Below, in pieces: positions 17,515 through 63,164 of a stretch of DNA of 64,000 nucleotides; within the stretch, counting starts at the first letter, position 1, and each line of letters opens with the position of its first letter. The position numbers and the translations under genes are program-made. The notes beneath the pieces were generated by a model. The model did no database searches. It saw nothing but the letters and a program-made list of their open reading frames with translations, and had not been told where the DNA came from. The stretch is taken from sequence record OP114733; one strand, 5' to 3'. Source of the stretch: Escherichia phage vB_EcoM-pEB20.

Positions 17515-18057
17515 ATGAGAAAAGCACTACTCGCTGGTCTATTTGCTCTTTCATTATCAGCACATAGCTCCGAGCATACTTTTAGTAATGTCCAACTCGA
17601 TAACTTGAATTATGCTTATCAGTTTGGGGAACAGTTTTCTAAGGACGGAAAATTTAAAACGCATGAAAATATGCATAAGAAAGGACTTGGATACATAATG
17701 GCCGCAATACTATGGCAGGAATCATCCGCCGGTATTAATCTTAAAGATAAGAAAGGTCACCATGCGTATGGAATGTTCCAAAATTATCTACCAACAATGA
17801 GGGCAAGAATTAACCAGCTTGGTTATAATATGACTGATGCCCAAATTAAGAAAATGCTATCTAAGCGGTCTAATTCAGCCAGATGGGCTTATATCGAATT
17901 TTCTTATTGGTTAAATATACATAACGGGGATATAAGAAAAGCTATATCCTCATATAATGCGGGATGGAAGACAAGTGCTGGAAGTAAATATGCTTCTGAA
18001 GTCCTAGAAAAGGCTAATTACCTTAAATCAAATAAACTACTGGAAATAAAAGAATGA
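17515..18057 (+). CDS. secreted lytic transglycosylase-like (SLT domain) protein
   Basis: Signal peptide; E-S catalytic motif (LWQESSAG), GMFQ and YNAG motifs of SLT family. Confidence 0.65.
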   Translation: MRKALLAGLFALSLSAHSSEHTFSNVQLDNLNYAYQFGEQFSKDGKFKTHENMHKKGLGYIMAAILWQESSAGINLKDKKGHHAYGMFQNYLPTMRARINQLGYNMTDAQIKKMLSKRSNSARWAYIEFSYWLNIHNGDIRKAISSYNAGWKTSAGSKYASEVLEKANYLKSNKLLEIKE

Positions 18058-22387: not shown

Positions 22388-23373
22388 TGAAAACAATTAT
22401 GAAAGGCTACTTTGGTAGCCACCTTTATGGAACGTCTACCCCAGAATCTGACGTTGATTTTAAAGAAATTTATGTCCCTCATGCTCGTGATATCTTGACC
22501 GGTAACGTTAAAGAACATATGAGCAAGAACACGAATAACACATCTTCTAAGAACACAAAAGACGACGTGGACCATGAGTTATATAGTCTCAAATATTTCT
22601 TTAAACTAGCTGCGGATGGTGAAACTGTCGCATTAGATATGCTTCACACTCCACCAAGTCTAGTAGTTAAATCTGATTTGCCTGATGTATGGAAGTATAT
22701 TCAAGATAACAGGTCTCGTTTCTATACCACTAACATGAAATCTTATTTAGGGTATGTCCGTAAGCAAGCTTCTAAATATGGTGTCAAGGGTTCTCGACTG
22801 GCTGTTCTTCGTCAAGCCCTTAAACGTTCTAATGAATGGGGACAATACTTTGATAACGGTGCAGTAATTCGTTTATCACATATGAAGAATGTTCTGCCTG
22901 TAGGTGAATTTGCTTCATGGGTTGAAATCGAAAACGAGAAAACAGGTAAGCAAACATTCTATAATCTGTTAGACCGTAAATTCCAAGACACGTTAACCAA
23001 TAAAGAGTTCAATGCCATCCTGGTTAAACTGGAAGAGAACTATGGTGAACGTGCTCGTAAGGCAGAAGCTAACGAAGGTATTGACTGGAAAGCATTGAGT
23101 CATGCATGTCGTGGTGGACTTCAATTATTGGAAATTTACAAAACCGGCGACCTGGTTTACCCACTTCAGGATGCTCCATTTATTCTCGATGTTAAGCTTG
23201 GTAAACATACGTTTAAAACTGTACAAGAATTCCTAGAAGATATCGTTGACCAAGTTGAACATGCGTCAGAACAAGCTGCCAAGAATGGTATGCAACAAAA
23301 AGTAGATATGAGTTTCTGGGATGATTTCCTTGAGCAGGTCTATCTCGAAAATCATAATTCTTACTATAAATAA
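22384..23373 (+). CDS. hypothetical protein with nucleotidyltransferase-like N-terminal motif
   Basis: 329 aa; GSHLYGTSTPESDVDF matches G-S...D-x-D NTase signature; unverified. Confidence 0.55.
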   Translation: MMKTIMKGYFGSHLYGTSTPESDVDFKEIYVPHARDILTGNVKEHMSKNTNNTSSKNTKDDVDHELYSLKYFFKLAADGETVALDMLHTPPSLVVKSDLPDVWKYIQDNRSRFYTTNMKSYLGYVRKQASKYGVKGSRLAVLRQALKRSNEWGQYFDNGAVIRLSHMKNVLPVGEFASWVEIENEKTGKQTFYNLLDRKFQDTLTNKEFNAILVKLEENYGERARKAEANEGIDWKALSHACRGGLQLLEIYKTGDLVYPLQDAPFILDVKLGKHTFKTVQEFLEDIVDQVEHASEQAAKNGMQQKVDMSFWDDFLEQVYLENHNSYYK

Positions 23374-23404
23374 ATAGATAAATAACCATTAACTTGAGGT
23401 AAAT

Positions 23405-61016: not shown

Positions 61017-62039
61017 ATGGCTGAATGGATAGATAATGAATTTGCTTATCGTGCGTTTTCTCACCTACCTCGTTTTAGACAAATCAATAATTCAAGCACA
61101 TTTAAATTAACGTTTCGTTGTCCAGTTTGTGGCGACTCTCAGACAGATGCAATGAAAGCCCGCGGATGGTATTATGGCGGTACTCCTGGTAATGTACATT
61201 GCTATAACTGCCAATACCACAATACAATTTCCGGATACTTAAAAGAGTATGATGAAGAGCTTTATCGCGAATATCTAATGGAAGTTCGTAAAGAAAAGGC
61301 TAGAATGGAACCAAAGATTGAAAAGGTTCCTGAACATAAACCAGAACCGGAGAAAAAGACTATAAATTCTTTGCCGTCTTGTTCTCGTCTAGACAAGTTG
61401 CCTGAAGAGCATCCTATTGTGAAATATGTTAAGTCTCGGTGTATTCCTAAAGAATCGTGGAACAGATTATGGTTCACATTGGAATGGCCTAAATTGGTCA
61501 ACAAGATTCAACCTGGCACATATAAGAAAGAGATTCCCGAACCACGTTTAGTTATTCCTATTTTTAATAAAGATGGGAAGGCCGAGTCATTCCAAGGACG
61601 TGCACTTCGTAAAGATGCTCCTCAGAAATATATCACTATTAAAGCGTTTGAGTCTGCAACAAAAATTTATGGTGTTGAACGTGTTAAGGAAGGAGACGTC
61701 TGGGTAATGGAAGGCCCTATTGATAGTTTATTCATACCAAACGCAATCGCTATTACAGGCGGCTCAATAGATTTAGATGTGGTACCATTTAAAGAACGTC
61801 GGGTATGGGTAATGGATAATGAACCTAGGCATCCAGATACTATAGCTCGCATGAAGCGATTAGTTGATGCAGGCGAACGTGTCATGTTCTGGGACCGAGC
61901 TCCGTGGAGTTCAAAGGATGTGAATGATATGGTAATGAAAGAAAATGCAACACCACAAGAAATTTTAGAATATATGAAACAGAATATTTCAAGTGGGTTG
62001 CATGCTAAAATGAGATTATCTCGTTATTCGAAGATTTAA
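61017..62039 (+). CDS. 61: DNA primase gp61
   Basis: 340 aa; N-terminal zinc ribbon CPVCGDS...CYNC; TOPRIM-like region; T4 synteny. Confidence 0.95.
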   Translation: MAEWIDNEFAYRAFSHLPRFRQINNSSTFKLTFRCPVCGDSQTDAMKARGWYYGGTPGNVHCYNCQYHNTISGYLKEYDEELYREYLMEVRKEKARMEPKIEKVPEHKPEPEKKTINSLPSCSRLDKLPEEHPIVKYVKSRCIPKESWNRLWFTLEWPKLVNKIQPGTYKKEIPEPRLVIPIFNKDGKAESFQGRALRKDAPQKYITIKAFESATKIYGVERVKEGDVWVMEGPIDSLFIPNAIAITGGSIDLDVVPFKERRVWVMDNEPRHPDTIARMKRLVDAGERVMFWDRAPWSSKDVNDMVMKENATPQEILEYMKQNISSGLHAKMRLSRYSKI

Positions 62040-62233
62040 ACCAGTCCTACAATAGCAAAGGCCAAATCAACTACAGTATCCAATGGAACAGAAGGAACTA
62101 TAATACCATGGGCAACTAACAATGGTGCAATCCCGAAGTTCCATGAAATAATGCCACCTACAACTATTGCAGCGATAGCAGTTTTCTTTTTATTGCCTTT
62201 AATAGCGTTGATTAACGATGGAAGTTTAAACAT
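62036..62233 (-). CDS. small membrane protein (only minus-strand gene candidate)
   Basis: 65 aa, two TM helices; ATG preceded by strong SD TAAGGAG with 6-nt spacing; convergent with gene 61. Confidence 0.5.
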   Translation of the reverse strand: MFKLPSLINAIKGNKKKTAIAAIVVGGIISWNFGIAPLLVAHGIIVPSVPLDTVVDLAFAIVGLV

Positions 62234-62264
62234 AATAATCTCCTTAGTTACCTATTATTTATTA

Positions 62265-62289
62265 CGCTTTATAAAATTAATGTTAGAAT
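62265..62289 (+). promoter_or_regulatory. middle (MotA-type) promoter candidate for gene 56
   Basis: GCTTTA at 62266, 12 nt, TAGAAT at 62284. Confidence 0.45.
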
Positions 62290-62323
62290 TAAACTCTCTT
62301 ATACTGAATTGAAAGGAAAAATA

Positions 62324-62845
62324 ATGGCGCACTTTAACGAATGTTCACAACTTATTTCTGGTGTTGATAAAGCAGAAGAAGCTTATTTTAATGCTCTGAT
62401 TCACGAAGATAAAGACCCACTGCAGGTAATGCTTGATATGCAGAAATCTTTACAGGTTCGTCTGGCAAATGACAAGCCTGAACATAACAAACATCCTGAT
62501 GAATTGGCTACTGCTGGTGATGTTGTTGATTGGCTGCGTAATCAGAAAGATTATATTGATGACGAATTCCGTGAACTACTGACTTCACTTGGTGGTATGT
62601 CCAATGGTGAAAAAGCCGCTAGCTCTGTGTGGAAGCCATGGAAAGCACAACATGCCGAATATCGTAATCGTCGTATCGATGAACTGTCTCCTGAAGACCA
62701 GCTTGAAATTAAATTTGAGATGATTGATATCCTCCACTTTGTTCTGAATATGTTCCAAGGTCTGGGTCTTTCTGCTGAAGAAATCTTTAAACTTTACTAC
62801 TTGAAAAACCAACACAACTTTGAACGCCAGAATAATGGTTACTGA
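62324..62845 (+). CDS. 56: dCTP pyrophosphatase gp56 (MazG-like)
   Basis: 173 aa MAHFNECSQLISGVDKAEE...; matches T4 gp56 as recalled. Confidence 0.9.
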   Translation: MAHFNECSQLISGVDKAEEAYFNALIHEDKDPLQVMLDMQKSLQVRLANDKPEHNKHPDELATAGDVVDWLRNQKDYIDDEFRELLTSLGGMSNGEKAASSVWKPWKAQHAEYRNRRIDELSPEDQLEIKFEMIDILHFVLNMFQGLGLSAEEIFKLYYLKNQHNFERQNNGY

Positions 62846-62851
62846 TTAAGT

Positions 62852-62859
62852 TATAAATA
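62852..62859 (+). promoter_or_regulatory. late promoter TATAAATA upstream of soc
   Basis: Exact T4 late promoter consensus about 30 nt upstream of soc ATG. Confidence 0.65.
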
Positions 62860-63127: not shown

Positions 63128-63136
63128 ATAATTTAA

Positions 63137-63164
63137 GGAATCCTTCGGGATTCCTTTTTTTTTT
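63137..63164 (+). terminator. rho-independent terminator with UUCG tetraloop
   Basis: GGAATCC-TTCG-GGATTCC + T10. Confidence 0.8.

Follow-up and report, generated by a model that had tools for sequence, protein, structure and literature searches.

In a 64,000-nucleotide (nt) stretch of Escherichia phage vB_EcoM-pEB20 (record OP114733; one strand, 5' to 3'), hereafter referred to as the window, one short open reading frame (ORF) on the minus strand raises two questions: is it a gene, and what would its product do? The ORF runs from 62233 to 62036, between the DNA primase gene 61 and gene 56, and has 65 codons for amino acids. A first-pass annotation, made from the letters of the window, described it as the only credible minus-strand gene in 64 kb, with a product having two transmembrane (TM) segments, and proposed that it is either expressed late or a recently inserted cassette. 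Here, we find that the ORF is almost certainly a real protein-coding gene of T4-like phages. On balance, we favor the reading that it is an old gene, probably transcribed late, with a predicted single-pass membrane protein as its product; a part in modulating the cell envelope is a tentative guess.

The length of the ORF carries no significance by itself in DNA of 37% GC. The ORF stands beyond chance because of purifying selection, a full-length family match and a position that is conserved across genera. Its initial description as a credible gene for a small membrane protein is supported. Ratios of nonsynonymous to synonymous substitution rates (dN/dS), obtained by the Nei-Gojobori method, are 0.075 between the window and RB69, 0.086 for L009, 0.149 for L021 and 0.096 for ESCO47 (homologous loci are referred to by L numbers or by phage name). 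The differences at codon positions 1, 2 and 3 number 14, 3 and 30 against ESCO47, and 16, 6 and 39 against L017. Between genera, the synonymous sites are saturated and the protein is still 48-57% identical. A plus-strand ORF, 62151..62312, overlaps the gene. It was rejected as a true gene, as it has no T4 counterpart and the substitution pattern fits the minus-strand frame. Because dN/dS is low, the third codon position is favored and the overlapping plus-strand ORF lacks a T4 counterpart, the region is regarded as a gene and not as a mere regulatory spacer.

The window comes from a T-even phage of the RB69 type, genus Mosigvirus, and the 2.2 kb around the ORF has a nucleotide identity of 97-98% to NHEP36, MM02, JS09 and HX01. 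The coding sequence (CDS; 62036..62233, minus strand) encodes the protein MFKLPSLINAIKGNKKKTAIAAIVVGGIISWNFGIAPLLVAHGIIVPSVPLDTVVDLAFAIVGLV, and its ATG is the first start possible past the upstream stop. Ever since the RB69 genome paper, the gene has been on record as a hypothetical; it is so labeled in MM02, in JS09 (JS09_0153, with a note of similarity to RB69ORF029w) and in RB69 (RB69ORF029w, NP_861719). The window protein and its ortholog RB69ORF029w have equal length and are 96.9% identical. The family phrog_2024, with no function assigned, matches the window protein end to end (positions 1-65 of 65, E=1.4e-27), and it is matched by all 24 diverse members of our alignment A3. To this, the present analysis adds coding selection, a conserved late-type promoter motif, a predicted single-pass topology, a pair of paralogues (A and B) and a gap in the annotation of T4. 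In Pfam, the window protein has no match even at E<=1. Sequence searches of NCBIfam, PADLOC and PDB gave nothing meaningful for the family, a fold search against viral models returned the family itself and noise only, and a third word-indexed protein search with a broad profile brought in no Pfam-domain proteins.

The setting of the ORF on its strand is also distinctive. The window has 181 minus-strand ORFs of at least 40 amino acids, and only this one sits within a gap between plus-strand ORFs. Its overlap with plus-strand ORFs is 2%, against 27% for the next-best minus-strand ORF. In the collinear stretches of JS09 examined (record positions 93000-142900 and 151681-158879), it is the sole gene annotated on that strand. 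These counts and the JS09 annotation support the first-pass view of a lone minus-strand gene, and two further details given there can be confirmed from the sequence. The Shine-Dalgarno sequence TAAGGAG (62240..62246, minus strand) is separated by the 6-nt spacer ATTATT from the ATG (62233..62231). At the other end, the ORF overlaps the primase stop by 4 nt. The overlap is a TTAA palindrome (62036..62039), in which the TAA of the ORF (62038..62036, minus strand) and that of gene 61 (62037..62039, plus strand) are shared. A strong GGAG or GGAGG is found at the equivalent place in all homologues that head the locus.

How widely is this arrangement conserved? A tblastn search matched the protein in 692 phage records, 685 of which cover at least 80% of it. 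The gene is convergent with the 3' end of gene 61 in records classed as Mosigvirus, Tequatrovirus (including T4) and Gaprivervirus. Enterobacter phages (e.g. ZX14) and Salmonella phages (e.g. S16) carry it beside the primase or the dCTPase gene. The TTAA overlap is also found in T4, RB69 and Klebsiella-phage loci, and is absent in L017, L019 and L026, where gaps of 7-18 nt are seen. The T4 ortholog has 66 amino acids and occupies 17738..17938 (plus strand) of NC_000866, or 2239-2439 of L003. It has a AAAGGAGG ribosome-binding site, the motif GATAAATA upstream and the TTAA stop overlap with gene 61. Its home is the 310-bp gap between dam and 61, which carries no CDS in RefSeq, and other T4-like records annotate the ortholog as hypothetical. 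T4 is the best-studied phage, yet NC_000866 omits an ortholog on which purifying selection acts and which is preceded by a strong ribosome-binding site and a late-type motif, which makes this a concrete annotation gap. Only one truncated match was noticed among the 692 records. In T4_ev240 (L036, LR597657.1 16195-16320), one nucleotide is missing from an A-run (AATAAGAAAC to AATAA-AAAC), and past about codon 16 the reading frame is shifted; this may be a real loss or a homopolymer sequencing error.

More distant members were sought with profiles. An exhaustive hidden Markov model (HMM) search of 1.8 billion representative proteins returned 18 proteins, and, as far as these sequence searches reach, the family is small and largely confined to phages. 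Two distant relatives (about 25% identity) lie again between the dCTPase (gene 56) and primase (gene 61) genes of T4-like metagenomic contigs. Four others are found in non-T4 phage or prophage-like contexts (L029 3001-3213, L030 3001-3153, L031 3001-3210 and L033 129-308). These four have profile-search E-values of 1e-4 to 4e-6, all match phrog_2024 and none has NATAAATA, the heptamer discussed below. Three of them follow tail genes, with an endonuclease VII gene adjoining two of the three, and the fourth is next to a RelA_SpoT-domain gene. The genes near the distant relatives were checked for lysis genes, and only endonuclease VII, a weak hemolysin/XhlA-like match (E=0.004) and the RelA_SpoT protein were seen.

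These distributions bear on the age of the gene. It could be argued that the ORF is a moron, inserted recently as a cassette, or that it is a spurious frame within regulatory intergenic DNA, since it is the sole gene on its strand in the window and the locus is variable: copies number one or two, dam or other genes can be inserted next to it, and T4 has a homing endonuclease close by. However, the gene holds the same position in several T4-like lineages and in the relatives of about 25% identity, and its GC content is 37.4%, against a window mean of 37.0%. The homologues are not near-identical in DNA, as the saturated synonymous sites between genera show, and both the dN/dS of about 0.1 and the lack of a T4 counterpart for the overlapping plus-strand ORF speak against a spurious frame. 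The comparative data effectively refute this alternative, and the recent insertion proposed at first is not supported. Judged from its distribution, the gene is old and fixed in position.

The profile search also reaches a diverged paralogue, type B, which has the N-terminus MGT(I/L)FYQIWKL and an Asp within the TM helix. In Klebsiella phages Potts1, Marfa and pzk-kv8, type B is the only copy and converges on gene 61. Gaprivervirus UPEC01 has it downstream of A. ESCO47 and two Mosigvirus-like contigs from metagenomes have it upstream of A, the stop of B overlapping the start of A. The tandem arrangement of A and B is seen in ESCO47, L017, L021 and UPEC01. Type B copies lie at L005 2707-2907, L017 2305-2508, L021 2285-2491, L022 2305-2508 and L023-L025 2501-2701. 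Several GenBank records (UPEC01, SAKp28 and Yersinia phage P8) name type B 'DNA packaging ATPase', which on a 66-residue membrane protein is clearly a misannotation.

When would such a gene be expressed? A late-promoter-like octamer, AATAAATA, is located at 62256..62263 on the minus strand, 22 nt before the ATG. It agrees with the T4 late promoter TATAAATA in 7 of 8 positions and is a putative gp55-dependent promoter. Almost all T4-like homologues examined have the heptamer NATAAATA 14-24 nt ahead of the first gene at the locus, even though the sequence around it shows no relation from one group to another. By chance, the heptamer would be met in an upstream stretch of this kind with a probability of about 0.7% per locus. 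The octamer begins with G in T4, L015 and L026, with A in the RB69 type and L010, and with C in Gaprivervirus, ESCO47, L017 and L028. It begins with T, which gives a perfect TATAAATA, in L021 and in three Klebsiella-phage loci. That NATAAATA is conserved upstream supports the idea of a late promoter flexible in its first base. Nolan et al. 2006 (PMC1524935) report poor conservation of the T at -13, a position held by A or T, in most of the T4-like phages of their study. ATAAATA is depleted in the 64-kb window, with 13 copies observed against 31±5 expected, 3 of them on the minus strand. The perfect TATAAATA occurs 4 times, always on the plus strand (722, 20039, 23365 and 62852), and the copy at 62852 is just upstream of soc. 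Three overlapping ATAAATA copies are seen at 23366-23384 (plus strand).

As NATAAATA lies upstream of nearly all T4-like copies, and as a perfect TATAAATA in some, late, gp55-dependent transcription is likely. Late expression, one of the two possibilities put forward at first, is thus the mode best supported by the motif and its fixed upstream distance. The gene would be transcribed on the 'late' strand from a promoter of its own, the gp55-type late variant AATAAATA (62263..62256), and the predicted start lies about 6 nt beyond it. The resulting 5' leader would have about 16 nt and would include the TAAGGAG ribosome-binding site. The 90-bp divergent spacer between the ORF and gene 56 also has, back-to-back with the late-type octamer, a MotA-box-like middle-promoter site for gene 56 on the plus strand (62266..62289; GCTTTA, 12 nt, TAGAAT). 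By its position, this site appears to correspond to Pm:16038, a middle promoter predicted for RB69 (Nolan et al. 2006, supplement 4, PMC1524935). Read from these elements, the spacer looks like a divergent middle/late promoter pair. Scans for sigma-70 promoters and terminators around the locus found no more sites than in shuffled sequence.

A convergent late transcript could also act as RNA. It would be antisense to gene 61, pair with read-through mRNA from 61 to 56 and shut off early mRNAs late in infection, and the peptide would then be secondary. The convergence with gene 61 is kept across genera, often with overlapping stops, and a search for terminator-like sites came back empty, both between the ORF and gene 61 and on the minus strand over 61400-62036. 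An antisense-only role has no need, however, of an amino-acid sequence that is under purifying selection with a conserved motif. Moreover, several genomes have retained the gene but not the overlap of the stops, and the distant relatives in non-T4 contexts have no primase nearby. We therefore consider a primarily RNA-level function to be very unlikely. Antisense action on gene 61 may be an added effect, which leaves the selection at the protein level unexplained.

The protein, on which the favored reading turns, can be described as composed of three helical segments. The AlphaFold2 model, calculated on a 49-sequence alignment, has a mean predicted local distance difference test score (pLDDT) of 83, with helices at residues 4-12, 17-41 and 52-62 and a loop at 42-51. 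Residues 4-12 (62198..62224, minus strand) form a predicted N-terminal amphipathic helix followed by a basic stretch rich in Lys and Asn. By charge count and the positive-inside rule, this region would be cytoplasmic. Residues 17-41 (62111..62185, minus strand) form the single confident TM helix (pLDDT 89-95), which bears W31, N32 and P37, the residues best conserved in the family. Residues 42-62 (62048..62110, minus strand) comprise a conserved loop (G43 to P47, 'GxxLPxV') and a short acidic amphipathic helix, 52-62, and by model, conservation and charge would be periplasmic. There are 5 Lys/Arg and no acidic residues among residues 1-18, and 2 acidic and no basic residues in the C-terminal third. 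For RB69ORF029w, one predicted TM segment (21-41) and no signal peptide are listed in the supplementary TM table of Nolan et al. 2006 (PMC1524935). That table of TM segments and signal peptides otherwise holds ORFs without T4 names (Nolan et al. 2006, PMC1524935), yet T4 has the 66-residue ortholog.

The two-TM description given at first holds in part. One TM helix is robust. In the homologues from T4, Gaprivervirus and Klebsiella phages, the best 19-residue segment lies within this helix, with an octanol free energy of -9.8 to -13.3 kcal/mol. In the window protein, the highest Kyte-Doolittle segment is the C-terminal one, 44-62, with an octanol free energy of about -0.6 kcal/mol, the value for the TM helix being computed for the homologues only. 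This C-terminal segment is marginal, with an 11-residue helix and two acidic residues, and one TM is given in the published table. Its hydrophobic part spans 11-14 residues with two acidic ones, and it is not hydrophobic in the type B paralogue. A second TM segment is doubtful. We predict, with fair confidence, a single-pass inner-membrane protein with its N-terminus inside and its C-terminus outside, an orientation that follows from the basic N-terminus and the acidic C-terminus under the positive-inside rule. The basic amphipathic N-terminus, with its 5 Lys/Arg, would stay in the cytoplasm, one 25-residue helix (about 17-41) would span the inner membrane, and the conserved loop (G43-x3-P47) and the short acidic helix would face the periplasm.

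Five residues, W31, N32, P37, G43 and P47, are invariant or more than 90% conserved over 24-49 sequences (alignments A2 and A3), down to 15% identity. W31, N32 and P37 are invariant in A2 and invariant or at least 90% conserved in A3. W31 and N32 are placed halfway along the TM helix, and the whole family keeps an acidic residue near position 52. The core motif can be written as W-N-(F/Y/L)-x4-P ... G-x3-P ... (D/E); it extends in and past the TM helix and is present in the window protein. In membranes, a buried Asn is well known to drive helices to associate. The Trp-Asn pair and the Pro conserved in the TM helix, and the tandem paralogue with an Asp in its TM helix, suggest that the protein would work through such association in the membrane, with itself, with the paralogue or with another phage or host membrane protein. 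From the sequence, homo- or hetero-oligomerization or binding to another membrane protein seems the most plausible mode of action.

A small membrane protein that is probably late invites comparison with holins. The protein would then be a small two-TM holin or antiholin (class II or pinholin-like), that is, an inner-membrane hairpin that makes or gates the lethal lesion at the end of infection. Its size of 65 residues, its late-type promoter and its hydrophobic C-terminal stretch fit this description, and a homologue in OE5505 is named 'Holin' in UniProt. Some distant family members have weak matches to phrog_3427 (E=5e-4) and phrog_11161 (E=0.012), and 3 of 24 members match the C-terminal third of the model of PF11351, GTA_holin_3TM, at E=0.03-0.1. 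An hhalign comparison gave a probability of 88.6% to an 81-residue 'GTA-like holin' of Pseudanabaena phage Pan1, and some non-T4 relatives lie just past tail genes, a frequent site of lysis cassettes. However, the second hydrophobic segment has the shortness, the acidic residues and the divergence in the paralogue described above, the supplement of Nolan et al. lists one TM, and the window protein matches nothing in Pfam at E<=1. The best PF11351 score is 15.3 bits (E=0.03), against a gathering threshold of 24.8 bits, and the Pan1 protein is itself below the threshold for PF11351. Alignment of the A3 profile with the PF11351 3TM holin reported for Oceanospirillum phage PD0307 (ORF26) gave a probability of 0.2%. 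The same value was obtained with ICP1 ORF137, which we take from its ORF number to be the experimentally tested holin TeaA, an identification that is unconfirmed, and which has no PF11351 match itself. Furthermore, T-even phages already own the T holin, the RI and RIII antiholins and spanins, and the gene adjoins no lysis gene. Membership in the holin family was rejected on the sub-threshold PF11351 scores and the failed profile comparison, and is kept as a weak lead; that the protein acts as a holin or antiholin of this kind seems to us unlikely. Type I toxins of the Ldr/Hok-like kind gave no significant match, with 1 of the 24 family members matching Ldr_toxin at E=0.1.

What, then, might the protein do? 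A committed but tentative guess, more apt to fail than to hold, is that it would be a late-acting modulator of the cell envelope, in lysis timing, lysis inhibition or late exclusion, and not the hole-former itself. A bolder version is that the product of this conserved, probably late gene would, together with its tandem paralogue where there is one, be a new T-even component of lysis, lysis inhibition or envelope control, with Asn-mediated association with the T holin or a host membrane protein, in a family perhaps distantly related to the last helix of 3TM holins. We regard this version as a long shot.

Several points weigh against the reading of a late envelope modulator. The late-promoter HMM of Nolan et al. 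2006 (PMC1524935) lists no site upstream of RB69ORF029w, the window octamer departs from TATAAATA at the first base, and the motif is absent in the homologue L019. Searches of the literature for RB69ORF029w, T4 ribosome profiling, T4 transcription start sites and unannotated T4 proteins turned up nothing on this gene, and no RNA or protein expression evidence for it. The gene is not next to e, t, rI or spanin genes, its neighbors being those of the primase and the dCTPase. On the collinear map of JS09, tens of kb separate it from rI and from the lysozyme gene e. No observation links the protein with lysis, and Pfam, NCBIfam, PADLOC and PDB searches yielded no relative. Finally, the membrane orientation and oligomerization are predictions only.

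A different envelope function would be that of a membrane-located exclusion, immunity or counter-defense factor, with an Imm/Sp-like role but acting late, which might, for example, block secondary DNA injection or a host membrane-based defense. A small bitopic inner-membrane protein with a conserved periplasmic tail, as predicted here, would suit this role. In Mosigvirus genomes the gene shares its early-region neighborhood with sp, imm and imm.1, and variable copy number and paralogue turnover are typical of arms-race genes. The strong purifying selection (dN/dS of about 0.1) nevertheless points away from diversifying selection, a late promoter is odd for a function needed early, and the protein is homologous neither to Imm or Sp nor to any family in PADLOC or Pfam. 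Such a role therefore seems improbable. A membrane-protein family positionally fixed on the late strand across many T4-like phages is a tractable candidate for missing T-even players in lysis timing, lysis inhibition or envelope control. If no phenotype is found, it is simply another small accessory gene.

The neighboring features of the window can be summarized as follows. The convergent neighbor, the DNA primase gene 61, spans 61017..62039 on the plus strand (phrog_47, E=3.8e-102, and the annotation of relatives). For gene 56, the ORF list gives a TTG start at 62309 (plus strand), and the ATG at 62324, after GAAAGGAAAAATA, agrees with the start annotated in relatives. Just past soc, at 63135-63156, there is a 9-bp GC-containing hairpin with a T-run. 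This terminator-like element, whose stem reads on both strands, matches a terminator annotated in MM02.

The gene can finally be compared with known systems. The class II holins (S21), the 3TM GTA-type holins (PF11351) and the T4 RI antiholin are likewise small, late and of the inner membrane, the lateness of the present gene being deduced from its signals. Holins, however, have two or three TMs, whereas this protein has one confident TM, and no endolysin or spanin gene is adjacent to it. T4 Imm and Sp are also small, envelope-located proteins, encoded a few kb away, but they have no sequence similarity to it. Imm and Sp belong to the early or middle class and are read from the early strand, while this gene is on the opposite strand with late-type signals. 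The T4 late gene soc, which is embedded in the early region, is a closer parallel in its expression signals: it too is small, lies within a block of early genes, and has a TATAAATA-type octamer about 15-25 nt ahead and a strong ribosome-binding site. It differs in having the same direction as the early genes and a perfect octamer, whereas the present gene is on the opposite strand with AATAAATA, from which its late transcription is only deduced. RB69ORF029w likewise lies between genes 56 and 61, is oriented in the same way and overlaps gene 61 by the same TTAA. Nothing essential differs between the two, and RB69ORF029w is the same gene in a sister phage.

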